Assembly (NCBI GenBank): GCA_963765495.1
Contig: CAVXWP010000008.1
Location: forward strand, 320,001 to 384,000
Length of the DNA stretch: 64,000 nt
DNA from: Blastocatellia bacterium
GTDB lineage: Bacteria > Acidobacteriota > Blastocatellia > UBA7656
Direction of reading: 5' to 3'
A program made the translations under genes and the position numbers. Of this stretch, positions 2,925 to 62,134 are shown one piece after another (the first letter of the stretch is position 1; each line of letters begins with the position of its first letter). A model generated the notes under the pieces. The model was not told where the DNA came from, ran no database searches, and saw nothing but the letters and a program-made list of their open reading frames with translations.

Positions 2925-3713
2925 TCATTGTCCAAGCTGTTGACGGGCAAGCGCGGCTTCGTTGCTTCTCGGAAAGAGTTTTATGACGGCCTGAAATTCG
3001 GCTCGCGCCGATTCCGAATCGCCAAGCTCTTGCAGCGCCATAGCCTTCTTGAATCTCGCGCCCGGTATCTTGTCACCTTTTGGGAAGAGTGTAGAAACCT
3101 TGTCGAATTCAGCGATGGCCTGTTCATACTGATGTTTCCCGAATAAGGCTTCGCCAATCCAATACTGGGCATTATCGGCCATCTCGCTTGTGGGGTATGT
3201 CTCTACGTATTGTCGGAACTCGCTTATAGCCAGATCATAATTGCCTCGGCTGTAATCGGCATAGGCGGCAGCAAAGAGTTGATCGGGGTTGCCGGGCGTT
3301 ATCTGAGTGAAGGCAGGCAACTTTGGCATATCCTCGACCAGCTTCTTGAGTTCGGCAATCTGCTCAGAAAGCCGGTCAATCCTTTGATTGGTAGCAGAGA
3401 GTCGTTCGCCTACGCCGTTCACCTCCTTGATGGCGCTCAGAGAGCCCTCCGAGACTCTGCCCTGCGCCTGGCGTATCGCAGAAACGTTATCAATTATCTG
3501 ATTGATCAGGGCATTAATCTGACCGCTATTGCGATCAAGTGATTCCTGCATGTCCCTAAGCTGTCGCTGAAGGATGACGATTTCATTCTTCATCTCGTCG
3601 AGCGCCAGCTTTACCTGCTTGTCATCGAAGTTCCCGCCGCTTGCTTTGGGTGCGCTCATTCCGAGAGAGAACACGAAAGCGAGCGCAATCAGTATCATTA
3701 GTTTTGATCGCAT
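2925..3713 (-). CDS. cpoB: Tol-Pal system protein CpoB/YbgF
   Basis: Signal peptide, coiled coil and C-terminal TPRs (AQYWIGEA); last gene of tol-pal. Likely start MRSKL at 3713 after AGGAG (ORF extends to 3758). Confidence 0.85.
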   Translation of the reverse strand: MRSKLMILIALAFVFSLGMSAPKASGGNFDDKQVKLALDEMKNEIVILQRQLRDMQESLDRNSGQINALINQIIDNVSAIRQAQGRVSEGSLSAIKEVNGVGERLSATNQRIDRLSEQIAELKKLVEDMPKLPAFTQITPGNPDQLFAAAYADYSRGNYDLAISEFRQYVETYPTSEMADNAQYWIGEALFGKHQYEQAIAEFDKVSTLFPKGDKIPGARFKKAMALQELGDSESARAEFQAVIKLFPRSNEAALARQQLGQ

Positions 3714-3782
3714 AATCTGCTCCTGTAAATATCGGCCTGAAGCGAGCAGGATGCTCAATCGACCCTGCTCGCCAAAACCGGC

Positions 3783-4808
3783 TTACTGCCCGTTGCCCGC
3801 CTTCAACTCCATCGTCAAGGTGACGGGTTCCGGGCTGCGGGGTGTCCCGCCCGATACGTATATGAAATCATCCCGTCTGTCGTGTGCCCACGAAGGCACG
3901 ACCGAAGGCGCGCCTTCGCTTCCGCCGCTCGCCCTCTCTTCGCCGTAGCTCACCGTCTGGATACGAGATGAGTCAACGCCGAGCGATGCAAGAAACTCGC
4001 GCGCCGCCTGGGCACGCCGCTCGCCCAGACCGATATTATACTCTTCGGTTCCGCGCGGGTCGCAATTGCCTTCTATGCGAAAGGTAATTGAACGGTTGGG
4101 AACATCGGTCAGCCAGGAGGCTGCACGCCGGAGCATATCTTTTCCATCCGGTCTTATTTCGGCGCTGTCATAATCGAAATAGACAGGCAGCACGTTTTGA
4201 GAGAACAAAGCGGCAATCGTGGGGTTCGTGTTCGAAGTGGTCGTGCGCGGTCTTGAATCATCGGGCGGCTCGTTTACCGTTATGCGAGTGGATGCGGAAT
4301 CGCTTCCGCCCGGCCCCGTTGCGGTCGCGGTGTAGGTAGTCGATTGCGATGGGCTGATCACGCGCGAGCCTGATCCTTGAACTGTGCCAAGTTCGGAAAT
4401 ATTTACCTGATCGGCATTTGTCGAACTCCATCTGAGCGTGGTGCTCTGACCGCGTTCGATGCCGCTTTGGTCTGCCGAGATCGAAATTGTCGGGGCCGCG
4501 GGTTTTGGAGTGACGGCGACCACGCGGCTGTCGCGGGCCTCTTTGCTGCCTCGTTTGGCAACCGCCGTATATGTGGTCGTGTTGTCGGGCGTGTAAACCT
4601 TAGAACCGACCTTGTCCACCTTCTCACCGTTGAGGACGACTTCCTTGGCATCTTTTGAGACCCAGCTTACTCTGACATCTTCACCCTGCTGGATCCGGTT
4701 TTGTGAGACTTCAAGAGTAACCTTGGGTTTCTTACACCCGGCTACACCTACGAGCAACCCTGCAACAAAGATGATCGCAAATAATCGAGAAAACCTGGTT
4801 GCCATCAC
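3783..4808 (-). CDS. pal: Peptidoglycan-associated lipoprotein Pal (OmpA-like C-domain) with two extra Ig/PKD-like domains
   Basis: Lipobox VAGC; VYFDYDS, IEGNCDPRGTEEYNIGLGERRA and TVSYGEE motifs; position after tolB. Confidence 0.85.
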   Translation of the reverse strand: MMATRFSRLFAIIFVAGLLVGVAGCKKPKVTLEVSQNRIQQGEDVRVSWVSKDAKEVVLNGEKVDKVGSKVYTPDNTTTYTAVAKRGSKEARDSRVVAVTPKPAAPTISISADQSGIERGQSTTLRWSSTNADQVNISELGTVQGSGSRVISPSQSTTYTATATGPGGSDSASTRITVNEPPDDSRPRTTTSNTNPTIAALFSQNVLPVYFDYDSAEIRPDGKDMLRRAASWLTDVPNRSITFRIEGNCDPRGTEEYNIGLGERRAQAAREFLASLGVDSSRIQTVSYGEERASGGSEGAPSVVPSWAHDRRDDFIYVSGGTPRSPEPVTLTMELKAGNGQ

Positions 4809-4875
4809 TATTCTCCTTTCTTCCGCCCGGCCCGTGGTTGTGAGGTCGTGGCCGAGTCTTTATCTGATTGAATGA

Positions 4876-4956
4876 TGATGCGCGATGAGTGATATGTGAT
4901 TCGTGAGGCAGGTTGGGGTCCCGTATCACGAATCGCGTATCACTCATCACGTATCA
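4876..4956. repeat. 31-bp imperfect inverted repeat built from 7-nt units, between tolB and pal
   Basis: TGATGCGCGATGAGTGATATGTGATTCGTGA pairs with TCACGAATCGCGTATCACTCATCACGTATCA (1 mismatch, 3 G-T pairs). Confidence 0.75.
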
Positions 4957-4960
4957 CTTT

Positions 4961-6268
4961 TCATTTTGCCCATGTCGGCGAACGTCCGCCGCCTTTTGAA
5001 ATCTGGCGCTGGCCCGTCCCGTCAATATGCATCTGCCATATTTCCCACCTTCCCGACCGATTCGATTGAAATGCCAGGTGTCGTCCGTCGGGCGACCACG
5101 TAGGACTCTCATTTCGTCCCTGTGAGGTCACTTGGAGCAGCTGGCCCGATGCAACGTCTGCGATAAAAATCTGAAAGCTTCCCGCGCCTCCGTAGGTGAA
5201 GGCGATGTAGCGGCCGTCGGGTGACCAGGATGGTGAATCGGCGTGGCCGCCTCGCGAAATCAGGGGGCGTTGATTTGCGCCGCTCGCATCCATCACATAA
5301 ACCTGCGGCGACCCGCTTCTGTCAGAGATAAAGGCTATTTCGCGGCCCGTGCGGGGGTTCCATCTCGGAGAGATGTTGACAGCCTTTCTTGTCTGGGTCA
5401 GCCGGCGCGGGTTTGACCCGTCGAGGCCGGAAACGTATATCTCCATCGACCCGTCGTTGCTGATGCCGGAGCTGAAGGCGATCTGCCCGTTTGGAGAGAT
5501 CGAAGGCGACGATGTTGTGGAATTGTAGTGCGTGCCCCCGACAAGGCCCCCGGAAGAGTTTCTAACCACGATATTTGCCACGCCCGATTTGAAACTCACA
5601 TAAGCCAGGTATCTTCCGTCGGGCGAAAACTGCGGGAATCTGACTATCGGGCCGTCGCTTGCGAAGCCTCTATGATTGAACCCGTCATAGTCCATCATGT
5701 TTATCGAATCGCCCGCGACATAGGCGATCTTTGAAGTTGCTATGCCGTCCCTTCCTGTGAGGAGTTTGACGATCTCGTCGGCAAATTCGTGAGCCATCAT
5801 TCTTGCATCGCCCGTGTGGCGAGTGGCAATGAGTTGTTGTTTTGTCTTTACATCGAAGAGGTATGTGTCTGCGGCAAGCCCGCCCAGATTCTGAATATTG
5901 CCGAATGCGACATAATCGGCCTTTGTCGGGTCGGCGCTCCATTCTTCGAAATTTAGGCTCGCCGGGTCAGGCACAAGGGTCTTTGGGTTGAGACTCTTGC
6001 CGACTATCCCGGTCACGGCGGCGAAATCGAGATCATCCTTCAGTACCTGATTAAAGGTAGCCACAGCCGCTTCTACGCCCGCCGTTCGGGCTACGAAGTC
6101 GGCGAGGGCAAGATTTGGACCGTTGCCGGGAGTGACGATGATAGTGCCTATCTGGGAACGCAAGTCCTGGCGGTCGGAGGCAGGCTCCTGTTGCGCAAGG
6201 CTTGTGTGTGGCCAGTTAAAGACAAAAAACAGGGCAGTAGAGATCAATATAGACTTACAAATTCTCAT
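4961..6268 (-). CDS. tolB: TolB beta-propeller protein
   Basis: Signal peptide, TolB N-domain (AHEFADEIV), PD40 repeats (SPSWSPDGRYIAF); operon context. Confidence 0.9.
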   Translation of the reverse strand: MRICKSILISTALFFVFNWPHTSLAQQEPASDRQDLRSQIGTIIVTPGNGPNLALADFVARTAGVEAAVATFNQVLKDDLDFAAVTGIVGKSLNPKTLVPDPASLNFEEWSADPTKADYVAFGNIQNLGGLAADTYLFDVKTKQQLIATRHTGDARMMAHEFADEIVKLLTGRDGIATSKIAYVAGDSINMMDYDGFNHRGFASDGPIVRFPQFSPDGRYLAYVSFKSGVANIVVRNSSGGLVGGTHYNSTTSSPSISPNGQIAFSSGISNDGSMEIYVSGLDGSNPRRLTQTRKAVNISPRWNPRTGREIAFISDRSGSPQVYVMDASGANQRPLISRGGHADSPSWSPDGRYIAFTYGGAGSFQIFIADVASGQLLQVTSQGRNESPTWSPDGRHLAFQSNRSGRWEIWQMHIDGTGQRQISKGGGRSPTWAK

Positions 6269-6381
6269 AATTTAATAACCGCTTCTTCCCGTCCATATTC
6301 TGGTCAGATCGTAATACCAGAAGAGAGGACTCGGAGAGATACCTGAGTGTGTTTATAAACGGCCTGCAATCGGAGCCTGAA

Positions 6382-7245
6382 TCATTTCGGATAACGAAAC
6401 CAGACCTCAGCCACGGCTTCCTGTACGCCGGATAGAAACCCTGCCGGAAAAGGGGGCAGGGGATCAGATGCTATCACAGCCCGCTCGGCGGCGTTATTGA
6501 CAAGGGCAAGCGGGCTCCTCTGTTTGAAGTATGCAGGCGAGACCCGCCCGCCGGAAACCGAAAGAATCTTTCCATCCCTCGCGATTCGAAGCAGAATCTT
6601 AACATACTGGACCGAGTCCGAATCCGCGCCGGGCGGGTTATAGTTCCTCCCAAGTATGCTTTGAATTCTCCGTCCGTATTCTGAGCCGCCGGGCAAACCC
6701 GTGCCCGCCCCAAATCCGCCGCCTGTGCCCAGTCCTACACCGCCTGTCATTGTCGGAGTGGGGCTTCCGTAACTGCGCCCAACCTGCGCGGTCGGCGCAG
6801 CGGAACGGCCACGTTCCTCCTTGCCCGTAAATGCCTTCTCCTGTTGATTCACGACAGGGCGGTTGGTCTTTACGGCATCCTTATTTGGATCTTCCCTGTC
6901 GGTCCTTGGTAAGACCTCATCGGGGTTTTCGGTTGCGGGCCGCTCGGTTTCAAGTCTCGCATTGTTTACCGGGTTGTCCTCATCACCGACATATGAGACA
7001 GGCTGAGGTTTTGCAAACCCCAGGATGGCCGACGGGTCGGCTACCCCCACTTCTATAGAACCTCCGCCGCCTTCGCCGCCTTCGCCCGGCCCTGCGGCTA
7101 CTATTTCGGATGAGTATGTGCTTTTAGCCCACACGATCAGCAGAAGCAAAACAATCAGGTGGAGTGAAAACGACAGGGCAAGACCCAGGCGAGGCGACTT
7201 CTTCTCGCCAGCAGATTGGGCCTGAAATGTGCCCCCTTCAATCAT
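6382..7245 (-). CDS. TolA/TonB-like energy transducer
   Basis: N-terminal TM with SFSLH motif, Gly/Pro-rich linker, TonB_C-like end (IARDG...AERAV...PLPPFP); lies between tolR and tolB. Confidence 0.8.
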   Translation of the reverse strand: MIEGGTFQAQSAGEKKSPRLGLALSFSLHLIVLLLLIVWAKSTYSSEIVAAGPGEGGEGGGGSIEVGVADPSAILGFAKPQPVSYVGDEDNPVNNARLETERPATENPDEVLPRTDREDPNKDAVKTNRPVVNQQEKAFTGKEERGRSAAPTAQVGRSYGSPTPTMTGGVGLGTGGGFGAGTGLPGGSEYGRRIQSILGRNYNPPGADSDSVQYVKILLRIARDGKILSVSGGRVSPAYFKQRSPLALVNNAAERAVIASDPLPPFPAGFLSGVQEAVAEVWFRYPK

Positions 7246-7676
7246 TTCTTTTTCACCGTAGGCTCGGTGACGAGATTAACCTCGGCCCCGGCCTGCTTCG
7301 CAAGATCGAGGACATAGGCGATTATTCGATACGGGGTCTCGCCGTCGCCCCGCACATAGACCTTTCTCTCGCCCGATTGACCGAGTTTTTCAGAGATCAG
7401 CCCCGGAAGGTCGTTTATATTTACCGGAGTCGCTTCTCGTTGCGTGCTGAGATAGATGTTGCCGTCTTTGTCTATGCTTATGACAATGGCTTTTGGAGTT
7501 TGATTTTCAGTACGGGTTTCGCGTGTCTTTGGCAGGGAGACTTCGATGCCTGTCTGGAGTATCGGAGCCGTAACCATGAAGATAACCAGCAGCACAAGCA
7601 TAACGTCCACCATCGGGGTGACATTGATTTCGGAAAGCGAGGTCTGCGTTCGGCCCTGGTTATTTGTGAAAGCCAT
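7242..7676 (-). CDS. tolR: TolR/ExbD biopolymer transport protein
   Basis: EINVTPMVDVMLVLLVIFMVTAP motif. Confidence 0.9.
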   Translation of the reverse strand: MAFTNNQGRTQTSLSEINVTPMVDVMLVLLVIFMVTAPILQTGIEVSLPKTRETRTENQTPKAIVISIDKDGNIYLSTQREATPVNINDLPGLISEKLGQSGERKVYVRGDGETPYRIIAYVLDLAKQAGAEVNLVTEPTVKKK

Positions 7677-7739
7677 ATCCGATTATCTCATATCTCGAAT
7701 CTCAGTAATCAATCTGAGGATTGAGATTACGAAACCGCT

Positions 7740-8459
7740 CTAAAGGTTTGCCTTTATATAGTTGCGTTCGACAAAATTCAGCAATTCGAGTGAAAAACGG
7801 TCGAGGTCTCCGGTCATCGCCTTGATCCGGCTCAGAAAATGATTGTAAAAGATGGCCGCAGGCACAGCCGCCGCGATGCCTGCGGCGGTTGCTACGAGTG
7901 CCTCGGCAATACCGGGTGCCACTGCCTGAATAGATGAGGCCGAAGCGGTCGTCAGCCCTTCGAAGGCGATGACGATGCCGACCACGGTTCCGAAAAGACC
8001 TATAAAGGGCGAGGCGTTTGCAGTAGTCGCAAGCCAGGTCATGCTATGTTCCATCTGAGTTATTTCGGCGATAGTGGCCGATTGCAGCACACGGCTTAAC
8101 GAATCAATGCTGCGGATACCCGTCCCGCCGTCCCCCATCTGGTTTGTGATCTCGTTGTAGCCCGCCATAAAGATCCGCGCAAGAGGACTCTCCTTTATGG
8201 ATTGTGAATCCATAAACACGTCAGACAGCTTTGAGCGCGCCCGAAAACTCGAGAGAAATTCCCGCGTTGCGCGCTCTGCTTTCCTGAGCGATACCCATTT
8301 GCTGAAGATGATCGCCCACGAAATTATCGAGAACAGAAGCAACAGTAGTAGCACCCCCTTGGCGATTGGACTCGCTCTCAAGAGCAAATCAATGAGCGTG
8401 CTGCTTTGTGTTTCTGTGGTCTGAATAAATGAAAGAGCGAAAAAGAAACCTATCGTCAA
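7740..8459 (-). CDS. tolQ: TolQ/ExbB/MotA proton channel
   Basis: SPFIGLFGTV and VAPGIAEALVATAAG motifs. Confidence 0.9.
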   Translation of the reverse strand: MTIGFFFALSFIQTTETQSSTLIDLLLRASPIAKGVLLLLLLFSIISWAIIFSKWVSLRKAERATREFLSSFRARSKLSDVFMDSQSIKESPLARIFMAGYNEITNQMGDGGTGIRSIDSLSRVLQSATIAEITQMEHSMTWLATTANASPFIGLFGTVVGIVIAFEGLTTASASSIQAVAPGIAEALVATAAGIAAAVPAAIFYNHFLSRIKAMTGDLDRFSLELLNFVERNYIKANL

Positions 8460-8622
8460 TATGAGTTCTCCTTGACCATTTACACGAGATCAATTTTAGA
8501 ACGGCCCCATTTAAGGTGTCAAACAAATGGGCTTGAATCCTTTGAAGAAACGGGCTGATCTTACAGTTTTTTTCGCTTGTAGGCTTGACCGGCCAGAGGT
8601 GTTCAAACATAGTTGCAAGTCT

Positions 8623-10458
8623 GTGGAAAGGCAAAAGAGATTAAGAAGCGGGTTTTCTGCGCTTGGATTTGTGACAGCGGGTGTGTATCTCTTCCTCTAC
8701 TGCCCGATAGCGGTCCTCGTCGTTTTGTCCCTGAACAACTCTCGGTTCGGGACGATCTGGCAAGGGGTTACCTGGCGATGGTATGCGCTTGCGTGGCACG
8801 ACCGGGAATTGATAAGCGCCCTTCGCGTTAGCCTCGCCGTTGCCTTCTCGACTACCGTTATATCGACTATTTTGGGGACAGCGGCAGCGTTCGCGCTTTC
8901 ACGCTACAGGCTGAAACTCAGAGGCGCGGTTGAATCCATAGTATTTCTACCCGTGATCATTCCAGAGGTCGTCATAGGGTTTGCAACCGCAGGTTTATTC
9001 GGGTTGGCCGGAATCGCGCTGGGGCTTGGGACGATAATCGCGGCACACGTAGCCTTTTCGATCTCTTATGTTGTATTTGTCCTGCGCGCCAGGATCGCGG
9101 GTCTTGACCCGGCGCTTGAAGAGGCCGCGATGGACCTGGGAGCCACGCGAGGACAGACCTTTCTGAAGGTTACCTTGCCGATGCTGCTACCGGGGATAAT
9201 GTCTGCCGCCCTGCTTGTCTTCACCATCTCTCTGGATGATTATGTGATAACGAGTTTCGTAGCCGGACCCGGCGCAAACACCCTGCCCATCAAGATTTAT
9301 TCTATGGTAAAGACAGGTGTCACGCCTGAAATAAACGCCATCTCAACAGTGCTGCTTGCGGCAACTATTCTGCTGATCTTTGTCTCCGAGCGGCTTTCGG
9401 CAGGGCGGCTCACGCGCAGGTCGTTTGCGCTTGCCGCCGTCGCCGTGGGCTTTCTGGCGCTTTTCGCACTGGGCGGGAGAGGGCAGTCGGCAAGAGGCGG
9501 CGAGTTGAACATTTTCATCTGGTCAAACTATCTTCCCGACAGTGTGATCTCGGAATTCGAGCGTCGCTATGATGCGAGGCTTAATGTTGAGTTATACGAT
9601 TCAAATGAGGCGTTGCTTGCAAAACTCCAGTCGGGCGGAGCCGCCTACGACATCATAGTGCCGAGCGATTACATGGTGACGGTGCTAAAAGAGCAGGGGT
9701 TATTGCAGGAGCTTGATCTCGACAGCCTTACGGGCTTTTCAAATCTTGACCCTCAATTTCTCGGAAAAGACTACGACCCGCTCAATCAATACTCGATTCC
9801 TTATATGTGGGGGACGACTGGAATCGCCTACAGAAAAGACAAGATCGCAGCGCCGGTCGATAGCTGGGCTGTGATGTGGGACAATCGCTATGCGGATAAG
9901 ATAGCGATGCTTGACGACATACGCGAAACATTTGGCGCGGCGCTCAAGCGAATGGGCAAATCCCTTAACAGCACAGACCCGGAAGATATAAGAGCGGCTG
10001 CGCGATTATTGATCGAGCAAAAGCCACTTGTAAGAGCGTATGACAGCGGCGGCTTTGATCAGATGTTGTTATCTTCGGATGCGTGGATTGTTCAGGGTTA
10101 TAGCGGGCAGATAGCGAGGGCGATGATTGAAGACCCGGCAATCGAGTATGTAATTCCAAAGGAAGGTTGCACGTTTTTCATAGATAATCTATGTATCCCG
10201 CACAACGCGAAGCACGCGGAGCTTGCTCGGGAGTTTATAAATTTTGTGCTTGAAGCTCAGACGGCGGCCGACATCGCAAACGAGACCGGTTTCTCAACAG
10301 CCAACCTTGCGGCCCGCGCCTTTATACGTAGAGAGTTATTGACAAACGAGGCAGCCTACCCGCCGCGCGATGCTCTTGAGAGATGCGAGTTGATAAAGGA
10401 TGTGGGGGAGACGATCAGTCTGTACGACAGGTTATGGACGGAGATCAAATCCCGGTAG
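8623..10458 (+). CDS. Fused polyamine ABC transporter permease (PotC-like) and substrate-binding protein (PotD-like)
   Basis: LEEAAMDLGA EAA loop and SLDDYVIT in the N-half; NIFIWSNY, YDSNE, YDIIVPSDYM, PYMWGTTGI, PKEG in the C-half; one continuous frame. Likely GTG start at 8623 (ORF from 8527). Confidence 0.88.
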   Translation: MERQKRLRSGFSALGFVTAGVYLFLYCPIAVLVVLSLNNSRFGTIWQGVTWRWYALAWHDRELISALRVSLAVAFSTTVISTILGTAAAFALSRYRLKLRGAVESIVFLPVIIPEVVIGFATAGLFGLAGIALGLGTIIAAHVAFSISYVVFVLRARIAGLDPALEEAAMDLGATRGQTFLKVTLPMLLPGIMSAALLVFTISLDDYVITSFVAGPGANTLPIKIYSMVKTGVTPEINAISTVLLAATILLIFVSERLSAGRLTRRSFALAAVAVGFLALFALGGRGQSARGGELNIFIWSNYLPDSVISEFERRYDARLNVELYDSNEALLAKLQSGGAAYDIIVPSDYMVTVLKEQGLLQELDLDSLTGFSNLDPQFLGKDYDPLNQYSIPYMWGTTGIAYRKDKIAAPVDSWAVMWDNRYADKIAMLDDIRETFGAALKRMGKSLNSTDPEDIRAAARLLIEQKPLVRAYDSGGFDQMLLSSDAWIVQGYSGQIARAMIEDPAIEYVIPKEGCTFFIDNLCIPHNAKHAELAREFINFVLEAQTAADIANETGFSTANLAARAFIRRELLTNEAAYPPRDALERCELIKDVGETISLYDRLWTEIKSR

Positions 10459-18849: not shown

Positions 18850-19295
18850 TTCGCCCTTCTCTCAAGACATTTTCCCGCTGCGCGCAAGAAAGCCGCGCGA
18901 ACTTCCTCGTTGGCTATCATGGCGGCCTGTTCTTGCAGCGGCAATACCTGCTCTTCGGGGGCGATAAAGGAGATCTCGGGGGACTCTGAGTGTGTGCGGT
19001 CGATCAATTCGGGGTTGATCACAAAGTCGATAGCGGTGACGACAGGTGCGCCCAGGAGCGAGTTGAGAGTAAACAGGGCATGCCTGCTGACGTTTTTTAA
19101 TTGTGTGCGCCAGGTTGAATCTAAAACGGCTATTATGAGGGTTTTGCGCTCAAGCCTGACCGGAGCCGTGACCATTCGCACCTGCCGGCCTACGACCGCC
19201 GACCACGCCACAAAAACCGCCTGTTCGCGAAGCTCATCGGTATCGCCGACCTGGCGGAGCATCTGTGGTAGAAGTCGTAGCAACGATGTCAGCAT
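18846..19295 (-). CDS. DUF721/DciA-like protein
   Basis: W..VVG..V...TAPVRL...TLII.V.DSTW..QL pattern of DUF721. Confidence 0.7.
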   Translation of the reverse strand: MLTSLLRLLPQMLRQVGDTDELREQAVFVAWSAVVGRQVRMVTAPVRLERKTLIIAVLDSTWRTQLKNVSRHALFTLNSLLGAPVVTAIDFVINPELIDRTHSESPEISFIAPEEQVLPLQEQAAMIANEEVRAAFLRAAGKCLERRAK

Positions 19296-19381
19296 CAGGC
19301 TCGATTTGTGAGGATGGAAATCAAGAAACGATTTAAGGCATCAAAGCATCTCTTTCATTCATCATCCTCACACGACATCCG

Positions 19382-20881
19382 TCAATGTTTGATCTTTTGC
19401 CAATAGCTCTCGAATTCGAAATCAGGGCTGTTGGACTGAGTGTGGCATTGAACGCAACCGGATGGAGTGGTCATCTGGCCGTAGCCTTTGCCGGGATTCT
19501 CAACGTGCTGTTTGCCGGGTCCGTGACAGGCTTCGCACTGAACATTGGCAAACTGTGGAGTGGTGACCAGGCTCTGAAATCCACCCTGATTGAAACCCAC
19601 GACATGGCATTTCACGCACTCGGTATCGAACTGCTGATTCTTCTTCTCAAGCGTGGCCATTGCGTGCGCGTGGTTTGTATTCTGCCATATCTGGTACTGC
19701 TGTGTGTGACAGCTGGCACACGCATCCGCGCCAACATAAAGAGAGTTGGTATTGAGTGGTCCCTCGACTCTTACCGGCGTTGGGGTATGAGCCTGCGCGG
19801 CCTGATTTTGCTGCTCGGTAAATTCATCGTGCGCGGCAGTTACGATTCGGACAGCATCCGGGTCATCGGGTATCACCGAATCCATAGCGTTAAAGCGATT
19901 CACCTGATTTTCTATAGCGCCATCGCTTTTGACATAGTAGAGCATCTCGCCCAGATGTTTTGTTTGACTAAAGGCAGTGGTAACGGTTGCCCGGTTGTAA
20001 TGTTCGGGCTCGTCAAGCGAGTTGATCTGTTTGCCTGCAATCACAGTATCGATCTCTGAGTTATTGATCGCAAGTTTCTGAGCCATATCCCTGGGCATGT
20101 AAGCCAGCGCGATAATGACATCAACCTTCTTCTTTAGTTCGGGGAGCACTCGACTGGCTGCTTCAAACGGGTCGGTAATCCGATAGCTTGCATTTGTGGC
20201 GCTATCTATATTGATCTCCGTAAAACCGACGATGCCAACTTTGACCTTCTGTCCGGGAGCGCCTCGCTTGAGAGTGATTTCGCGGATCACATAAGGTTGA
20301 GGTGCGCGGTGAGAGTCATCGAGCGGCTCAACATTGGCAGAAATGAGTTTCGAAATGAACGGAAACTCTTCGATCCTGTTGTCATATCCGTCCTTCTTCA
20401 GCAACTCCGTAAGATAGGGAAGATCGGAATAGCTGATATTGGCAGCGTCGACATGGAATTCGCCGTAACCCTTGACTACCCATCTATTTTTTGTCATAAC
20501 GTCAGAGGGTAACTGGCCTCCAGCAAAACGCTCGTCGGTGAACAGATTGCCTGCATCAACGGAGATAGTGGGGACTTCTCCATTTGAGACGTACTTAAAT
20601 GCGTTGATAAAGCTGGCACGCCGTGCCAGACCACCCATAGGGTGAGCCGGTCAGCCACAGGTTTCGAGGCTGCCGTGAAGGTCAGCGCCGTAAAAGACGG
20701 CAAAGGCGTAACCATCATCTACGCCCAACCGGTCTTTTATTTTCGGATCATTCGGATCAAAGCTCAGGCTTTCAACTTTATCGCTGATCTCATCGGCTCC
20801 TGACCTGGAGCAGCCATGATTTATCGCAGCCAGCGTGGAAATGAACGCCAGTATGATTAATAGTGAGATTTTTCGCCGCAA
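19382..20881 (-). CDS. Probable selenoprotein: UshA-like (metallophosphoesterase-fold) domain with CGU motif plus C-terminal tetraheme c554-like cytochrome; exported
   Basis: ORFs 20651-20980 and 19382-20638 are in the same frame, separated by TGA plus 4 codons: ...DLHGSLETCG-TGA-PAHPMGGLARR. TTG start at 20881 after GGAGG, followed by a signal peptide. Four CxxCH motifs (CASCH, CVKCH, CEACH, CVQCH). Confidence 0.8.
20613..20650 (-). promoter_or_regulatory. Candidate bacterial SECIS element
   Basis: 3' of the UGA: CACCC-UAU-GGGUG hairpin, then CUGGCAC-GGC-GUGCCAG hairpin whose G-led loop starts 29 nt after the UGA. Confidence 0.55.
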
Positions 20882-20986
20882 TGGAAACCTCCGACAATGG
20901 AAAATCGCCTTCGATTCGAAAGGTTGTATGATAGTATAACAACCTGAAGCAGAATCCGAAGGCTGACAGTTCAAAATCATATCATT

Positions 20987-21577
20987 ATGGCCGAAAAAGA
21001 GACCAAAATAATTTTAGCATCTTCATCGCCCAGGCGCGCGGACTTGCTTAGGAATATTGGAGTTGCCTTTGAAGCCGTGCCCAGCGAAATTCACGAATGG
21101 CCTCATTCTGACGAAGCGCCACCGGATTATATCATACGTCTGGCAAGGGCTAAAGTTATTGCCGTGGCCCGCGAAAGGGATTCGGGGCTTGTTATAGGTG
21201 CCGACACAATCGTTGTCCTGGACGGTAGGTTATTGGGCAAACCAGAGAGCAAGGAAGACGCGGCAAACATGTTGAGGCAGCTTGCGGGGCGGTGGCATGC
21301 AGTGATGACCGGCGTAGCCCTCTACGACGCGGCCTCACGTCGCGAAGTTGCTGATTATGACAAGACTCTTGTGCGTTTCGCCCAACTAAGTGAAAAGGAG
21401 ATCGAATGGTACGTAGAGACGGGCGAACCTATGGACAAGGCGGGGGGGTACGGGATACAGGGAGCGGGTGGGATTTTTATAGAAGAGATAGCCGGTAATT
21501 ATTATAATGTCGTAGGTTTACCTATACCGCTCGTCTACCGCCTTGCCAAACGCCTTGGCTATTCTTTTATCCCCTAG
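20987..21577 (+). CDS. maf: Maf nucleoside triphosphate pyrophosphatase
   Basis: IILASSSPRR, IGADTIV, DKAGGYGIQG, NVVGLP motifs. Confidence 0.93.
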   Translation: MAEKETKIILASSSPRRADLLRNIGVAFEAVPSEIHEWPHSDEAPPDYIIRLARAKVIAVARERDSGLVIGADTIVVLDGRLLGKPESKEDAANMLRQLAGRWHAVMTGVALYDAASRREVADYDKTLVRFAQLSEKEIEWYVETGEPMDKAGGYGIQGAGGIFIEEIAGNYYNVVGLPIPLVYRLAKRLGYSFIP

Positions 21578-22585: not shown

Positions 22586-24184
22586 GTGGTGGTTTTATCA
22601 TCCTTCTCAACAGGTGCAATTATGGCAACGTCGGAAACAAATGTAAGAAATGATCCTGAATCAAATACGGCTGCTGAAGTAGTAGTCAAGCCAAGTCCCA
22701 GAAAAGAAGTATCCATAGTCGATAAAATATTAGCTCTGCTCAGTTCAGTGCGTTTTGGGGTGACTATGCTCGTCATCCTTTTGATTTGTTGTATGATCGG
22801 AATGCTTATTCAGCAGGTAAACGTAGAGGGATTTCAGGAGTACTTTCAGCGGCTTACACCCGCCCAAAGGTTGATCTACTCAAAGCTGGGATTCTTTGAT
22901 ATTTATCGGTCATGGTATTTTAGCCTTTTGCTTGCCGTAACAGGGTTGAATATTATCCTCGCATCTATAGATCGTTTTCCCACAGCCTGGCTCTATATCT
23001 CAAAGCCAAAGGTAAAGGCATCGCCAAATTTTATCCGCGCTCAGATGTTTAATAGCGAGATAAAAGAGAACATTCCTCCTCAGAAAGTGGCTGAAAGTGT
23101 CCGCGCCGGATGGCGCAGGCTCGGATTTCGAGGTAAGGCAACCGAGGATGGAAAAAGAATCACAGTATTTGCTCAGAAAAACACCTGGAATCGCCTCGGC
23201 GCATATGCAGTCCATGTTGCGCTGCTCACCATCTTCACGGGCGGCTTTTTGACAAACAGATATGGCGTAGGGGGGATGATGGAGATTCGCCCCGGGATGA
23301 CGACGAATGCCTTTAATACCATTGAAGAATCACTCGATGGGCCGAAAGTGGATAGAGCATTCACTCCGTTTCAAGTCGAGTGCGTAGATTTGCAGCAGAA
23401 ACTGATCAGACCCGAGGGCGGGCTCGATGCCCAAAACACGATTGATTGGATCAGCACCGTCAAGATAAAGGATGGCTCGAAAGAGGTCCCGGCAGTTGTG
23501 AAGTTGAATTATCCATTCGATTATCGCGGATACAGGCTTTTTCAATCACAGTTTACGCCGGTCGGGAATGCGCGGAAGATTGTTTTGAGTTTTGAACCCG
23601 CATCAGGCGGGAGCCCACTGCCCGAGGTTACGATCCCGCGAAACGGGTCGGAAGATGTTCCGGGCATTGGGAAAGTGAGTTATGTAGACTTCTTCCCGGA
23701 TTTCAAGATTACGGAATCGGGACCGACGACACAATCCGGGGAATACAACAGCCCTGCCGCGAGGTTGGAAATTACATCACTTGATGGTAAAAAACAGACG
23801 GCCTTTGCCTTCAGCCCAAAGATTGCGGACGAATATTTATCGGCGGCTGAAAAGGCCGACAAGACCGGGGGCGAGAACCCTCTGCTGGTAAATGGATACA
23901 AAGTTATATTAAAAGACTTTGAGAAGGTGGCGCTCGGCCATACGCTTGCAGTTCAGTATGACCCTGGCCGAATACCTGTCTATACGGGATTCACGCTTCT
24001 CATCCTTGCCTTATGTGGGGTTTTCTTTTTCTCTCATCAGAGAGCGTGGGCTGTTATTGAGCCCGATCCTGATGGGGGATCGACAGTGTACTTCGGGGGT
24101 AATACGAATCGAAACAGGCCTGCCTTCGAAGCTCGCTTCAATTCACTGGTTCAATCTGTTTCAGAAGGAAGGAGCCAAAGATGA
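22586..24184 (+). CDS. resB: Cytochrome c biogenesis protein ResB/CcsB (system II)
   Basis: LSSVRFG..LL...IGMLIQQ, DIYRSWYF, HVALL, LNYPFDYRGYRLFQS, YDPG motifs; start may be ATG 22622. Confidence 0.88.
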   Translation: MVVLSSFSTGAIMATSETNVRNDPESNTAAEVVVKPSPRKEVSIVDKILALLSSVRFGVTMLVILLICCMIGMLIQQVNVEGFQEYFQRLTPAQRLIYSKLGFFDIYRSWYFSLLLAVTGLNIILASIDRFPTAWLYISKPKVKASPNFIRAQMFNSEIKENIPPQKVAESVRAGWRRLGFRGKATEDGKRITVFAQKNTWNRLGAYAVHVALLTIFTGGFLTNRYGVGGMMEIRPGMTTNAFNTIEESLDGPKVDRAFTPFQVECVDLQQKLIRPEGGLDAQNTIDWISTVKIKDGSKEVPAVVKLNYPFDYRGYRLFQSQFTPVGNARKIVLSFEPASGGSPLPEVTIPRNGSEDVPGIGKVSYVDFFPDFKITESGPTTQSGEYNSPAARLEITSLDGKKQTAFAFSPKIADEYLSAAEKADKTGGENPLLVNGYKVILKDFEKVALGHTLAVQYDPGRIPVYTGFTLLILALCGVFFFSHQRAWAVIEPDPDGGSTVYFGGNTNRNRPAFEARFNSLVQSVSEGRSQR

Positions 24185-25737
24185 GTAGAGCAATAGACCG
24201 AAATGATGCAATGATGCCTGAACTGGAACTGACCTTGCCCGAGAAGGTGATTGGCATGTGGCCGGTTGTCATGCCTATATTGCTAGCGGTAGTGCTGATC
24301 CTGGCAAGGATTTACATAGGGCCAAAGGGCTTTTTATATGAGGGCGCGCTCACGATGCTTGCGCTCGTATCCTATATCAGCGCCGGAGTCCTGCTCTTAA
24401 CAAACCTCTTTGTAAAAGAGAATGTGCTTTACAGGCTGGGATTGCTGACCGTATCGATGGGGTATTGTTTTAACCTGTCCGGGTGGATGATGCGATGGAT
24501 AGAGGCCGGGGATGCCGAAGGGTGGAAAGAAGGAATCAACGGTGTCTGGCGCTATTTCCCGCTCGATAATCTTTATCCGCTAACGCTCGGATTTTGCGCG
24601 GGCGCAGCCTTGACGACGCTTGTGATTATTAGAAAACCTCGATATCAGTTTCTCGGGGCGCTCTCGATGCCGATAGTGACCGTGATTCTTACGCTTGCTA
24701 CTTTTTTGGGCAATGACATAAGAACGCTTCCTCCAATTCTAAACAGCTATTGGCGACCAATCCATGTGTCGATTGCGACAATCGCATATGGTGTTTGTCT
24801 GGTGAGTTTTGGTCTTGCCTTCGCTTATCTTCTAAAAGACGGGGTCAGAACAGAGGCGATTGCCATTGCGGTGGGGTTGTTTGGGCTGCTTGTGTATTCA
24901 ACGGTTGGGAGATTTGGCATCCCCTTTCATGGTGAGTATGGCGTTTCACTCTTTATGGATAAGATGAGTTTGCCTGTACGGGCAACTCTGCCTGGAGTCG
25001 GTCCCTTAATGGCCGTTGCTCTGATTCTGATATTGAGTGCTGTAATACTGTTTGCGATTGATTTCTGGAAGGGTGATGAGAAAGCGAAAAAATGGGGCTG
25101 GAATCTCTTCAGATCGGCAGTGGTCGTTCAGGCTATAGTGCTGGTCGCGCTGTTTTACCAGGTGAGCAATCTGAGCAATCCAAGTTCTCGTGTTCCGCAA
25201 AGCGCGTTGCCGCAATTCGGCGGATGGCTTTCAAAGCAGATGCAGACGAACGTGCCGCCTGATCGTCAGGCGGAATTGGCACAGAGTTGGATAAACCAGA
25301 ATTCAACATCTCTTATCGTCAACAAGGAGTCTAACCCCGTCGAATTTGGAGCACTCATCGGTTTATTTGTTGCGTTGCTGATTGTGTCATTGTTTGCCTG
25401 GAAGCGGAAAGAGGTGGTCAACTCCCTCCCTCCATTACAGAAGATTGACGGGTTGCTCTACAGAACTGTGGGGGTTGCTTTCCCCTTATTATCTCTTCTT
25501 TTGATTACGGGGGCCGTGTGGGCAAATGAGTCCTGGGGACGTTACTGGGGATGGGATTCAAAAGAGGTAGGGGCTCTCGTAGCATGGATGGCCTATGCAG
25601 GCTTCCTTCACACGAGGATTGCTCACGGCTGGCGAGGCAGACGCAGTGCCTACTTTGCCCTTCTCGGTTTTGCACTGGTGATCTTTACCTGGCTTGGGGT
25701 GAGCTACCTATTGCCGGGATTACATTCCTATGCCTAG
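24181..25737 (+). CDS. ccsA: Cytochrome c biogenesis protein CcsA/ResC (system II) with a large internal insertion
   Basis: WWD domain TGAVWANESWGRYWGWDSKE, YWRPIHV, C-terminal GLHSYA. Confidence 0.92.
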   Translation: MSRAIDRNDAMMPELELTLPEKVIGMWPVVMPILLAVVLILARIYIGPKGFLYEGALTMLALVSYISAGVLLLTNLFVKENVLYRLGLLTVSMGYCFNLSGWMMRWIEAGDAEGWKEGINGVWRYFPLDNLYPLTLGFCAGAALTTLVIIRKPRYQFLGALSMPIVTVILTLATFLGNDIRTLPPILNSYWRPIHVSIATIAYGVCLVSFGLAFAYLLKDGVRTEAIAIAVGLFGLLVYSTVGRFGIPFHGEYGVSLFMDKMSLPVRATLPGVGPLMAVALILILSAVILFAIDFWKGDEKAKKWGWNLFRSAVVVQAIVLVALFYQVSNLSNPSSRVPQSALPQFGGWLSKQMQTNVPPDRQAELAQSWINQNSTSLIVNKESNPVEFGALIGLFVALLIVSLFAWKRKEVVNSLPPLQKIDGLLYRTVGVAFPLLSLLLITGAVWANESWGRYWGWDSKEVGALVAWMAYAGFLHTRIAHGWRGRRSAYFALLGFALVIFTWLGVSYLLPGLHSYA

Positions 25738-30332: not shown

Positions 30333-31391
30333 ATGAGAATTAAAGTCTACCCAAACATAAGTAAGTGGAAGAAGTGTCTGTTTTTCATTTTGCTAAGTCT
30401 TATAATTTTGTATCCTCGAGTTGAGTCGTTTGGTCAGGAAGTGGACCAGAGACGTGGAAGAGATAAATCGGGGCGAGATGAGAAGGCAATTAAACTGAAT
30501 GCAACGCTCGTGCAGGTTCCTGTCATAGTCAGTGATTTGGGGGGTAGGTACACTACGGATTTGAAGAAGGAGGACTTTGAATTATTTGAGGATGGTGTTG
30601 AGCAAGATATTGAATTGTTTGGGTCGGTGGAAGAGCCTTTTAGTGTTGCTTTGTTGTTGGATAGTAGTGGGTCTACGGCTGAACAGTTGGCATTGATTAA
30701 AAAGGCGGCATTGGTCTTTATTGGGAATTTGAGGGCTCAGGATAAGGTTATGGTGTTTTCTTTTAATGATAGTGTTCAACAGATGTGTCCTCTTACTGGT
30801 GATAGGAATATTTTAAGGAATGCGATCGAGACAATAGAAAGCGGAGAATATACACAAGTTTATGAGGCAGTTTATACTGCGGTTTGGGAAAGGTTGAGGG
30901 GAGTTAGTGGTAGGAAGGCTGTCATAATGTTTTCCGATGGGATTGATACAGCGAGCAGTGAAATTGATGCTGAAGATACACTGGATGCGGTAGTAGAGAC
31001 AGAGGATATTATTATTTATCCAATTAGGTATAACACAAAGGCGGATGTAATTGAGAAGCTCGTTCGTAGGAGGGAAGGAGATTTGAAAGTTAGTCATTCC
31101 GCTGAAGCAAGTAAGTCTTGGGAAGAGACAATTAAGAGTTTAGATGACACTTATCGAGTGGCAGATGATTATCTGTCGCAGCTTGCTGAGTTGTCGGGGG
31201 GAGTTTTGGAGCGTGCGGACAGATTAGAAGATTTGGAGCAGGCATTTACAAGAATTGCTGAAGAGCTACGTCATCAGTATTTACTAGGGTACTATCCTAA
31301 GGATAGTGAAAGCAGGGGAATGGATCGAAGGATCAAGGTTAGAGTAAGACGTCCGAATTTAAGGGTAAGAGCCAGACCAGGGTATAAATAG
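30333..31391 (+). CDS. VWA domain protein (acidobacterial VWFA-related type)
   Basis: LVQVPVIVSD..GRY..DL..EDF..FEDG, MIDAS DSSGS, ELRHQYLLGYYP, VRARPGY motifs. Confidence 0.9.
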   Translation: MRIKVYPNISKWKKCLFFILLSLIILYPRVESFGQEVDQRRGRDKSGRDEKAIKLNATLVQVPVIVSDLGGRYTTDLKKEDFELFEDGVEQDIELFGSVEEPFSVALLLDSSGSTAEQLALIKKAALVFIGNLRAQDKVMVFSFNDSVQQMCPLTGDRNILRNAIETIESGEYTQVYEAVYTAVWERLRGVSGRKAVIMFSDGIDTASSEIDAEDTLDAVVETEDIIIYPIRYNTKADVIEKLVRRREGDLKVSHSAEASKSWEETIKSLDDTYRVADDYLSQLAELSGGVLERADRLEDLEQAFTRIAEELRHQYLLGYYPKDSESRGMDRRIKVRVRRPNLRVRARPGYK

Positions 31392-42500: not shown

Positions 42501-43033
42501 CTCTTCCCTATCTCAAAGTGCTCCGTTGTCGGCTCCGAAGGATCTCTTCTATTTGTAGCAGGGGTATGCTCTTGCGCGTTTCTGAACCCATTCGAGCCGG
42601 TTCGTTTGAGTATCTGTCGTACAGTTACGTGGCTAATGCTCTCGACAACACCCCTTTCGACCGCAGCAGTGGCAAGCTTTTGCGGCGTCCATTTATCAAA
42701 AGGATAACCGATACTGACCGGAGAGGTTTTGTATAATTCCAGTATCCGCTCCACTTCATCCTGGCTGAATTTTGGGCGCGGCCCACCTTGCGGCCCTCGC
42801 TTTTTCACCGCGATTCCAGCCAGCCCATCTTCGTTATATTTGCGGATCCACTTCTTGATGTTTGAAGAATGAAACCCAAGTATCTGACTTATCTCGGTCG
42901 CCGTCTTCCCATCAGATGAATGAAGTATTACATCTGCGCGCCAGGCCTCCTCCTTGTTTGAAGATCTAGAGCAACGTTGGAGCGACTCCTTCTCTGTGGT
43001 TGTCAACGGCCGGACGTATAAGGGTTGGAACAT
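39524..43033 (-). CDS. Sigma-54 enhancer-binding protein: IS630-like HTH, TPR array, AAA+ and Fis HTH
   Basis: GESGTGKE, GAFTGA, FLDEIG, WPGNVRQL; TPR-like helices over about aa 170-650; N-terminal ~145 aa transposase-like HTH. Confidence 0.9.
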   Translation of the reverse strand: MFQPLYVRPLTTTEKESLQRCSRSSNKEEAWRADVILHSSDGKTATEISQILGFHSSNIKKWIRKYNEDGLAGIAVKKRGPQGGPRPKFSQDEVERILELYKTSPVSIGYPFDKWTPQKLATAAVERGVVESISHVTVRQILKRTGSNGFRNAQEHTPATNRRDPSEPTTEHFEIGKRAFSGANYEEAVEHFYAVLTEDAGTIEQEAITRSLLSRSLEELSKFEEAYRILKKYENPEMISSLSTVMRARLRLRLGWVQSELRNHPEAIASFNDSKVLFHQLQDEVGVSESQYALGRTYIEINEYKIARDHLRAAVAVQKMTINHELLARIYVRLGVVDFNEGAFSSAKENYLKALNYAEKTSNVNLIGMILSNLGTGAYQYPLERKESKVYLSRGVEYLSKGGRRDYLAFAYNNLADNVRCSGYFDEAMGYLTRSLEISEELQDPRVEVTARITLGQIFCDKGDFAKAETELGKCLTLLDDYSDKWLESDALRTLAIVYSLTGQIDKGLKYLREALRLSTSVGDLYGVTLSHAYLAECHFHQHGFEQAQEYLELAQGRLKEEKSLYITGLVQRLAGKIHSVNNRFAEGKQLIAQSISIFTTLEIPFEEAKSRYEMGLLLGKTGEEKESREYFESAKRIFDRTGSVYYSECVTKSLDVFEFDEKGNSREVVLSPANDILLMQRLIEASASRELLVQEMAAVVHENFPVRFVLAFKVYDDSRSDLLAVQGMEHQEAEAYSERLDLDHIETGRQIDQGYAVKIGEDQGADIVLFVHPFDRLDFSRFRPLLKQVELGLETCSLREVVSSPSHPPEGHRIQTILPGFLVSSVSMSAVIDKIQKIRTSNVTVLITGESGTGKELVARAIHAESARARAIFLPFNCTATPKEIIDSQLFGHRRGAFTGATSNYPGIIKAAAGGTLFLDEIGDLSLEVQPKLMRFLQESEIQPLGETRPLKVDVRVLAATNTNLERAVEDGRFREDLFHRLNIIRIHVPPLRERIEELPVLASHFLEHFSSRSGKQGIVLTQESIDLLMQYDWPGNVRQLRNEIERVVAYASEGARIGAPDLSPEVAYPHKHSNGGRMSYTYDRSYGTNGDEGGHTSFNGSKRRNHQQPGSRVKLKDATAALERRLIEESLDRNKNNLSRTAQDLGLSRRGLRLKLNTLGIERENRT

Positions 43034-55271: not shown

Positions 55272-55519
55272 TTACTTATCGTGGATTGTCAGCAAGAAAA
55301 TACCGCAGTTATCCCCTCTTGGCAAATCGGAAAGATACCAGGGACATATTATTCCCTGTATATTTCAGGCGTTCTCATCAGGCGCAGGTGTTTTCTACGA
55401 TCACGTGATGGTTTGATCAGGGTAGAACGGGTGATGCCGTTTGTCGAATCCATCCCGGTGTTGTACCCTATGATTCCGGTTTACATCCAAACCCATTCAA
55501 TTCTGCTTGTAGGTGCAAT

Positions 55520-58548: not shown

Positions 58549-58570
58549 GTGAGAAGGCTGGAAATCTATT

Positions 58571-59401: not shown

Positions 59402-59418
59402 TTTCGGCGGAGAGACAG

Positions 59419-60702: not shown

Positions 60703-60764
60703 CAGGATTAACAAGATTTCTGAGAGATGGTTGGAAAAACTCTCCAAATCTTGTTAATCCCGTC
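60701..60764. repeat. Intergenic inverted repeat (GACAGGATTAACA family), copy 1
   Basis: GACAGGATTAACAAGATTT pairs with AAATCTTGTTAATCCCGTC (1 mismatch). Confidence 0.8.
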
Positions 60765-60812
60765 TGATTCTTTCTCCCTCTTTACAAACCGGAATTACCT
60801 TTAGAGGAGACT

Positions 60813-62117: not shown

Positions 62118-62134
62118 TCAGTAAAGGAACGAAC

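Follow-up and report, generated by a model that had tools for sequence, protein, structure and literature searches.

Does the in-frame TGA at positions 20651-20653 of a 64,000-nucleotide (nt) stretch of Blastocatellia bacterium DNA (contig CAVXWP010000008.1; hereafter the window, with all coordinates counted from its first letter) end a gene, or is it read as selenocysteine (Sec) within one? The codon lies on the minus strand between two open reading frames (ORFs), and an initial annotation, made from the letters alone, had joined these into a hidden selenoprotein in which a UshA-like domain with a Cys-x-Sec motif is fused to a tetraheme cytochrome c. Here, the locus was compared with homologous proteins, related genomic loci, curated protein families and solved structures. 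We conclude that it is very likely a genuine Sec-type member of a UshA-like/tetraheme protein family. The continuity of the gene, the conservation of its TGA, a covarying hairpin downstream, the occurrence of Cys-bearing homologues, the two-domain architecture and the loss of metal ligands were all observed directly and are presented below.

Results

A single in-frame TGA joins two halves of one gene

The upstream ORF (20651-20980, minus strand) comprises 109 codons and ends with LETCG at the TGA (20653-20651), and the downstream ORF (19382-20638, minus strand) comprises 418 codons and starts with MGGLARR in the same frame. Reading of the sequence confirmed the context LETCG*PAHPMGGLARR given by the initial annotation, and the TGA at 20651-20653 was found to be the only internal stop in the frame. 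With this codon read as Sec (U), translation from the TTG at 20881 yields 499 residues, the 77th being U. The claim that one TGA joins a signal-peptide fragment and a heme-binding fragment into a protein of 499 residues was therefore upheld. The whole gene (19382-20881, minus strand) contains 499 codons followed by a terminal TGA stop (19382-19384), and encodes a UshA-like Cys-Gly-Sec/tetraheme protein.

Direct reading also revealed a Shine-Dalgarno-like GGAGG (20888-20892, minus strand) located 6 nt upstream of the TTG start (20879-20881), and in the protein alignment the starts of homologues (M/L-RRK-ISL) coincided with the position of this TTG. The first residue of the Cys-Gly-Sec motif, Cys75, is encoded by a TGT (20657-20659, minus strand). 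Taken together, we hold with good confidence that 19382-20881 on the minus strand is one gene, rather than two ORFs or a pseudogene.

TGA terminates 19 of the 50 ORFs of the window, the present gene included. Because TGA normally ends ORFs here, global reassignment of this codon was ruled out. A scan of the window for ORF pairs bridged by one TGA returned 14 candidates; those other than the present locus overlap other listed ORFs and were set aside by eye.

The TGA is conserved and alternates with cysteine codons

A search of 5.8 billion proteins yielded 469 matches at E ≤ 1e-5 among 8000 scored candidates. Within the 120 best matches, 12 covered the query completely, one covered 93%, one covered 79% and about 106 covered 84%. 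The last group consists of proteins of about 420 residues that start just past the TGA column, some of them named 'multiheme c-type cytochrome [Blastocatellia bacterium]', a pattern that is expected if gene callers halt at a common TGA. Alignment of homologues across the TGA position, proposed as a check by the initial annotation, placed Cys at this column in 13 of 13 aligned uninterrupted homologues (the 12 with full coverage and the 93% partial match), in the context N-C-G-C-P.

The column was further examined at the DNA level. Scanning of 185,579 species genomes identified 248 relatives, and the best 80 loci were analyzed. The column was reached in 74 of these (six end short; the column of L063 was read by eye), with TGA in 36, TGC or TGT in 37 and CGT in one. 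All of the TGA-bearing loci derive from metagenome-assembled genomes (MAGs). In the closest 20 loci (L001-L006, L008-L020 and L030; 58-64% identical), which are mostly titled Blastocatellia, TGA was present in 20 of 20 within the context SLETCG*P[SA]HP[ML]GGLARR, and both flanks were conserved in frame.

A maximum likelihood tree of 84 rows (quick search, with support from the Shimodaira-Hasegawa-like approximate likelihood ratio test, SH-aLRT, only) placed the window gene within a clade (99% support) that comprises 21 Sec and 12 Cys rows, and the 12 Cys rows were nested in it as one clade with 100% support. The sister of the window clade was an all-Cys clade of 20 rows. Six Sec/Cys changes were needed by the whole tree, and three were forced by well-supported branches alone. 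The in-frame UGA and the Cys homologues at the same column, the pair of features by which bacterial selenoproteins are recognized, are thus both present. At the sequence level, a conserved TGA alternating with Cys codons is a selenocysteine signature, and it makes a faulty assembly or a nonsense mutation confined to this gene less likely.

Several relatives showed oddities. L065 (461-1615) carries CGT (Arg) at the Sec/Cys column and is the sole exception among the 74 loci. In L052 and L055 the gene is interrupted and its read-through frame retains no CXXCH, and L012 carries three CXXCH motifs, one fewer than usual. These irregularities could be sequencing errors or decaying copies. In addition, five loci (L011, L029, L032, L038 and L042) are titled 'uncultured Clostridia', 'Heliobacteriaceae' or 'Heliomicrobium'. 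In the gene tree, four of them (L011, L032, L038 and L042) were placed within Blastocatellia clades, and they partly shared the gene order of neighbouring loci; L029 was left out of the tree. The taxon labels of all five look wrong.

A covarying hairpin follows the UGA

Hairpins directly after the UGA had been noted in the initial annotation, and two were seen, at +9..+23 and +25..+41 relative to this codon. The first (20631-20645, minus strand) has 6 base pairs (bp) and a UAU loop, and is kept mainly in the Blastocatellia clade. The second (20613-20629, minus strand) has 7 bp and a GGC apical loop; it starts 21 nt past the TGA and its loop lies 28 nt past it. The calculated fold energy of the segment +21..+46 was -11.5 kcal/mol. 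For the bacterial selenocysteine insertion sequence (bSECIS), a figure legend in a review (PMC13188914, Fig. 2 legend) gives a loop of 3-9 nt, a stem of 4-16 bp, a G within the first two loop positions, a distance of 16-37 nt between UGA and loop, and a minimum free energy of -7.5 kcal/mol or lower. The hairpin at +25..+41 agrees with every one of these values (3-nt loop GGC, 7 bp, 28 nt and -11.5 kcal/mol). A search for a bacterial SECIS, which had been suggested as a further check, thus returned a hairpin that fits the published model and, in addition, shows compensatory changes.

These changes were counted in the 36 sequences with TGA, 35 of them distinct, aligned without gaps. The sequences are related to one another, a relation that bears on all of the hairpin statistics. 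Paired bases were found in 85.1% of cells overall, versus 32-40% when the 3' partners were slid by 1-3 columns, and among the 35 distinct sequences helix 1 was paired in 82.4% and helix 2 in 87.3% of cells. Two-sided changes occurred in 25 cells, a number reached by 0 of 500 shuffles. At the pair 30-36, for example, the variants AU (15), UA (7), GC (5), CG (2) and UG (1) were observed. Within the window clade, the switch from AU to GC resulted from two synonymous substitutions (GCA to GCG and CGT to CGC) in L004, L006, L011, L013 and L030. Moreover, helix 2 was paired in 221 of 252 cells in the Sec forms versus 139 of 266 cells in the 38 non-Sec forms (37 Cys and 1 Arg), and all seven pairs were intact in 23 of 36 Sec forms versus 1 of 38 non-Sec forms.

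The protein belongs to a known UshA-like (seleno)protein family

The read-through protein matched the NCBIfam family NF041198, 'UshA-like (seleno)protein' (UshA_like_PCGU), with an E-value of 7e-81. The best stretch aligned residues 328-491 with profile positions 352-519 of 519. Since the match runs through the heme domain to the last profile position (519/519), the tetraheme part belongs to the family as well. Among the family genes reconstructed from the loci, 70 of 73 contain four CXXCH motifs. The architecture proposed in the initial annotation, a UshA-like domain followed by a tetraheme cytochrome, was therefore borne out, but it is not a special fusion, since NF041198 spans both parts and 70 of 73 members have four CXXCH.

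The features that mark the wider family were found in the window protein. It possesses a UshA-like N-terminal domain and a multiheme C-terminal part, and Cys-x-Sec/Cys precedes GG[LV]ARR, here as C75-G-U77, with C or U at position 77 in 71 of 72 members. Compared with the family in general, it shares full-length homology including the heme domain, the Sec/Cys column before GG[LV]ARR and the distance between UGA and hairpin. It differs in its motif, which reads T-C-G-U-P-A-H-P and not P-C-G-U, and the window clade also differs in its retained D-x-H and in a signal peptide with a Gly-Cys lipobox-like end. Clustering at 50% identity (E ≤ 1e-30) gave a family size of 644 clusters.

Published listings agree with this assignment. 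In a Global Ocean Sampling (GOS) study, 'COG0737, UshA-like, CxU' stands among the previously characterized selenoprotein families and is noted as one of few that lack a thiol-oxidoreductase fold (PMC2398784). Two reviews list 'UshA-like protein, CxU' (PMC9312934 and PMC13188914), the later one adding NF041198, and three selenoprotein families were credited to Acidobacteria as early as 2006 (PMC1794560). Together with the NF041198 match, these listings support the earlier statement that UshA-like proteins with CxC or CxU before GGLARR are a recognized selenoprotein family. The accompanying statement that the family is mainly deltaproteobacterial did not hold in our sample, where 29 of 36 TGA-bearing loci were of Acidobacteriota, Blastocatellia or Terriglobia type by title or NCBI rank, in a taxon sample biased by the acidobacterial query.

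The second UshA-like family, NF049981 (UshA-like selenoprotein family 2), was rejected: the protein scored 29.4 bits versus a cut-off of 140, over residues 62-154 only. In both, a UshA-type fold carries Sec close to the N-terminus. NF049981, however, has a CxxU motif, versus CxU here, and its model of 262 positions lacks a heme domain.

Of 11 members scored against NF041198, only L075 (368.4 bits) and L074 (287.1 bits) passed its curated cut-off of 275. The window-clade locus L015 (273.6) and two Cys relatives, P0005 (261.7) and L021 (265.7), fell just below it. Such sub-threshold scores may be the reason for the truncated public annotation of the window clade. The locus is hence best described as a mis-callable selenoprotein gene of an already known family, in a Blastocatellia subclade just under the curated threshold.

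The phosphatase fold has lost its metal site

The N-terminal domain (residues ~55-360; 19802-20719, minus strand) adopts, by profile and model comparison, a metallophosphatase fold of the 5'-nucleotidase/UshA/SoxB type. A profile built from 60 diverse members and compared with the PDB matched the N-terminal domain of 5'-nucleotidases (E ~1e-34), UshA and SoxB (1e-22). One AlphaFold2 model of the read-through protein was obtained, with a predicted local distance difference test (pLDDT) score of 89.5 and a predicted template modelling (pTM) score of 0.84. It contained a high-confidence strand at residues 60-65, upstream of the TGA (pLDDT 95 for the block 61-70). Foldseek aligned this model with 5'-nucleotidases over ~340-360 columns (E ~3e-18, template modelling scores of 0.43-0.48). 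A Pfam scan of the protein returned the cytochrome c554 domain only and no Metallophos match.

In alignments to solved enzymes, motif I corresponds to D67-x-H69, the GD Asp to N112, the GNH Asn-His to Y151/S152, and the His residues of motifs IV and V to Y261 and K284, respectively. The window protein thus retains two of seven ligand-type residues (D67 and H69), and no member retained more than four. The set of dinuclear-metal ligand motifs that characterizes calcineurin-like metallophosphoesterases (DxH, GD, GNH and the motif-IV and motif-V His) is therefore incomplete in it. The partly eroded motifs described in the initial annotation were recovered, with DLH(G) and DAGN present and GNH missing; SYS was found in its place, and Y261 in place of the motif-IV His. 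Across 72 members, D67 was retained in 37, H69 in 32 and the GD Asp in 7 (Asn in 42); the GNH Asn was found in 2, the motif-IV His in 6 and the motif-V His in 7, and the last GNH position showed no His among the residues listed. By comparison, C75, G70, G83 and G84 were present in 72 of 72 members, C/U77 in 71 and G76 in 69. Across the aligned sequences, the metal site is degenerate family-wide, and Cys-Gly-Cys/Sec is invariant instead. Phosphoesterase activity is not expected because most of the dinuclear-metal ligands are lost.

The Cys75-Gly-Sec/Cys77 motif sits in the loop after the first strand, the place of motif I in true enzymes. The fold of residues ~55-360 is shared with 5'-nucleotidase/UshA/CD73 and SoxB, whereas the window protein differs from them in GD to GN, GNH to SYS, motif-IV His to Tyr and motif-V His to Lys. 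In addition, 5'-nucleotidase and UshA carry a C-terminal nucleotide-binding domain, and the tetraheme domain stands in its place here. The profile alignment also set the Sec/Cys column opposite a Cys in the post-motif-I loop of vertebrate-type 5'-nucleotidases (GKC-T/S-GEDCYGG). In CD73, this loop presumably carries a disulfide. A cysteine may already have been present in the post-motif-I loop before the loss of the metal site.

A tetraheme cytochrome domain and a putative upstream export signal

The C-terminal 120 residues (19385-19744, minus strand) form a cytochrome c554-like domain. PF13435 matched with 62.1 bits versus a gathering cut-off of 20.8, and four CXXCH motifs were found on the minus strand: CASCH (residues 388-392; 19706-19720), CVKCH (422-426; 19604-19618), CEACH (449-453; 19523-19537) and CVQCH (476-480; 19442-19456). 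Cytochrome c554 (1bvb) was matched with E-values of 7e-11 by the single sequence and 3e-23 by the profile. The Cys and His of the CXXCH motifs are conserved in at least 71 of 72 members; outside these motifs, H404 and H459 are found in 72 of 72 and H499 in 68 of 72. Four CXXCH and three further invariant His are also the pattern of cytochrome c554. The latter, however, is a free electron carrier, whereas the domain here is fused to a dead phosphatase fold. As there are seven invariant His for four hemes, one heme lacks a conserved distal His. Cytochrome c554 itself has one five-coordinate heme. The more specific model NF043010 (cytochrome c-550 CycA, Cyt554_Nsmonas) scored only 49.9 versus a cut-off of 400.

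A putative signal peptide is encoded at 20810-20881 (minus strand). The first 24 residues comprise a basic start (RRK), a hydrophobic stretch and the end LAAINHG-C24, with atypical lipobox residues at positions -3 and -2. C24 is at least 90% conserved in the protein alignment, the Gly-Cys pair is kept in the window clade, and C24 occurs in 22 of 72 members overall; other clades lack it. These features suggest that the product would be exported via its N-terminal signal peptide and would probably be lipid-anchored at Cys24 in the window clade. Because the signal peptide lies upstream of the TGA, the 418-residue ORF alone would be a c-type cytochrome with four CXXCH and no export signal, as the initial annotation had pointed out.

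Neighbouring genes point to heme attachment

A ResB-like gene (22586-24184, plus strand) and a CcsB gene (24181-25737, plus strand), both of system II cytochrome c maturation, were identified near the locus (TIGR03144, PF05140). The gap between the gene start and this pair is 1.7 kb, in line with the ccsB/ccsA pair that had been reported about 2 kb away. ResB/CcsB is likely the heme-attachment machinery for the tetraheme protein. Its position near the gene, two genes away, is kept in most loci of the Blastocatellia clade (clade A), and ResB/CcsB also lies near the gene in the Nitrospirota loci L066 and L070, with an ArsR regulator and a P-type ATPase in between. The conserved neighbours in the window clade comprise Maf, DciA, an ABC ATPase, LolA and a short-chain dehydrogenase/reductase (SDR) along with ResB/CcsB, and are otherwise housekeeping. 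The neighbourhood in this clade points only to heme attachment. An acidobacterial lineage, assumed in the initial annotation, is supported by the relatives, mostly titled Blastocatellia, and by an acidobact_VWFA domain at 30333-31391.

A different neighbour was found in closely related Cys-form loci titled Deltaproteobacteria, Nitrospirae/Nitrospiraceae or Thermodesulfobacteriota. A DsbA-like protein is encoded directly downstream in 9 of 10 such loci (L056, L059, L060, L062, L065, L066, L070, L071 and L072; for example, L062:3540-4169). It has about 210 residues, a signal peptide and a CxxC motif (CGHC, CGSC, CSHC, CGGC or CHTC), and fits a role in periplasmic thiol-disulfide exchange. Complex prediction with the N-terminal domain (residues 26-270) and the DsbA-like protein of L062 gave a score of 0.15 versus a mark of 0.32, and was counted neither way.

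Discussion

Evidence that weighs against a selenocysteine-decoded redox protein

A number of results speak against the interpretation favoured here. With regard to decoding, no selA, selB or selD name was present among the 50 ORFs of the 64-kb window; tRNA genes numbered zero in the window, and in 34 related loci one tRNA-Phe and no tRNA-Sec were found. With regard to the hairpin, shuffling did not impair the folding of a 101-nt region around the UGA (z = 0.19; 111 of 200 shuffles at least as good), and support for the hairpin was therefore taken from its position and covariation and not from energy. The local hairpin energy differed only modestly between Sec and non-Sec forms (-8.8 vs. -7.0 kcal/mol, p = 0.03, for non-independent sequences), the conserved GGLARR codons fix part of the stem, and no Rfam family matched the region 19000-21300 at E ≤ 1. 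The protein itself scored 272.3 bits against NF041198, 2.7 bits short of the curated cut-off of 275, so that the formal threshold was not reached. The DsbA-like neighbour was absent from the loci of the window's own clade. Finally, in the literature on UshA-like selenoproteins and acidobacterial selenoproteomes (supplements excluded), no experimental study of any family member was found.

Proposed mechanism

From the sequence and the predicted structure, we infer a mechanism in which Sec insertion, export, lipidation and the redox role, with its direction and substrate, are all predictions. Most likely, UGA-77 would be decoded as selenocysteine by SelB and tRNA-Sec, guided by the hairpin at +25..+41. 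The product would be exported, and four c-type hemes would be attached to it by the ResB/CcsB system, so as to make the C-terminal domain a four-heme wire like that of cytochrome c554. Cys75-Gly-Sec77 would be the active centre, cycling between a selenenylsulfide and the reduced selenol/thiol, and the pair would exchange electrons with the heme chain and, through it, with periplasmic or membrane redox carriers. A periplasmic thiol/disulfide partner would be the best substrate lead. This heme-coupled thiol/selenol redox mechanism is put forward tentatively.

A more specific version would make the whole family a heme-wired thiol/selenol oxidoreductase on a dead phosphatase scaffold, passing electrons from periplasmic thiol proteins, such as the DsbA-like one, through four hemes to the respiratory chain. 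This version is unlikely as it stands. If true, the family would be equivalent in function to DsbB, or to the CGC-shuttle sulfhydryl oxidases that it may resemble, but based on a cytochrome. In a bolder variant, Sec77 would ligate the one heme without a conserved distal His.

Alternative explanations

The alternative that survives best accepts a Sec protein and assigns the Cys/Sec pair a ligand role, either in a new metal site with D67, H69 and D109 or in a His/Sec-ligated heme. Sulfur-oxidising cytochromes have His/Cys hemes. The N-terminal domain counts SoxB, a sulfur enzyme, among its structural relatives. D67-x-H69 and D109 are retained near the motif in the window clade, and the three invariant extra His (H404, H459 and H499) leave one of the four hemes without a conserved partner. 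Across the family, however, D67 and H69 occur in only 37 and 32 of 72 members versus a universal Cys-Gly-Cys/Sec, and the five-coordinate heme of cytochrome c554 shows that such a heme also occurs elsewhere. We consider a ligand role quite improbable, and the redox-active pair proposed above is preferred.

A suppressor tRNA that inserts Cys, or another residue, at the UGA would also yield a full-length protein, and Cys works at this column in half of the family. Candidates would be SelB-dependent mimics of the tRNA-Cys type and acidobacterial 'allo-tRNAs'. One study (PMC5389517) describes tRNA-Sec-like tRNA-Cys species as possible opal suppressors in deltaproteobacteria, and allo-tRNAs in Acidobacteria as possible nonsense suppressors. 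In the same study, though, the selC* tRNA-Cys genes are assigned to Firmicutes, Thermodesulfobacteria, Nitrospirae and Proteobacteria and not to Acidobacteria (PMC5389517). Furthermore, no such tRNA was present in the window, the hairpin fits the SECIS model used by SelB, and the family is listed as a selenoprotein family. Suppression is accordingly judged very unlikely compared with Sec insertion.

A pseudogene or assembly error, in which an original Cys codon would have become TGA by nonsense mutation or by a wrong base call and the complete protein would not be produced, is highly improbable. TGA is one base from TGC/TGT, Cys occupies the column in 37 of 74 loci, Sec machinery was not seen in the window, and some homologues are damaged (L052 and L055 interrupted, L065 with CGT). 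The same codon nevertheless appears in all 20 closest loci, which come from different assemblies, and in 36 of 74 overall. Both flanks remain in frame and conserved, the hairpin carries compensatory synonymous changes, and about 106 of the 120 best matches are ~420-residue proteins that begin past the codon, as gene callers would produce at a common TGA.

Least probable of all is a pair of separate genes, a 109-residue exported peptide and a 418-residue cytochrome starting from Met82: this is the reading of gene callers, it is echoed by the ~420-residue public records named 'multiheme c-type cytochrome' and an ATG does lie 12 nt past the TGA, but the 418-residue product would hold four CXXCH without an export signal, the metallophosphatase fold spans the TGA with its first strand and motif I upstream, the Cys-form homologues are single ORFs and the NF041198 profile covers both sides.

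Significance of the finding

The locus adds a member to a family and does not represent a new kind of protein; the family is already in print, with no known function to date. The practical consequence lies in annotation. The gene and its relatives are mis-called, as seen in about 106 of the 120 best homologues, whose ~420-residue records start just past the TGA and bear labels such as 'multiheme c-type cytochrome', 'cytochrome c554', '2',3'-cyclic-nucleotide 2'-phosphodiesterase' or hypothetical. The window clade lies 1-3 bits below the NCBIfam cut-off that would flag its members, and lowering that cut-off slightly, or adding a subfamily model, would bring in a clade with Sec that is represented here by 20 related loci. 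In addition, the family combines selenocysteine, four hemes and a phosphatase fold without its metal site, and is a reasonable target in the search for new periplasmic redox activity.

Other genes in the window

Several further features were noted in the window. A complete Tol-Pal cluster is located at 2925-8459 (minus strand) and encodes YbgF/CpoB, Pal, TolB, a TonB_2-domain protein (TolA-like), TolR and TolQ. At 8527-10458 (plus strand), a 643-residue ORF joins a PotC-type ABC permease (residues 48-291) and a PotD-type polyamine-binding protein (residues 320-641). A 1169-residue sigma-54 activator is encoded at 39524-43033 (minus strand); its first ~800 residues have no NCBIfam match, and the AAA+ and DNA-binding regions begin at residue ~820. 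Finally, a hexuronate/hexonate utilization cluster occupies 54282-63817. It encodes an IolE-like dehydratase, glucuronate isomerase, the tagaturonate epimerase UxaE and D-mannonate oxidoreductase, together with a LarA-like nickel-dependent hexonate epimerase, a major facilitator superfamily (MFS) transporter and a GMC oxidoreductase.

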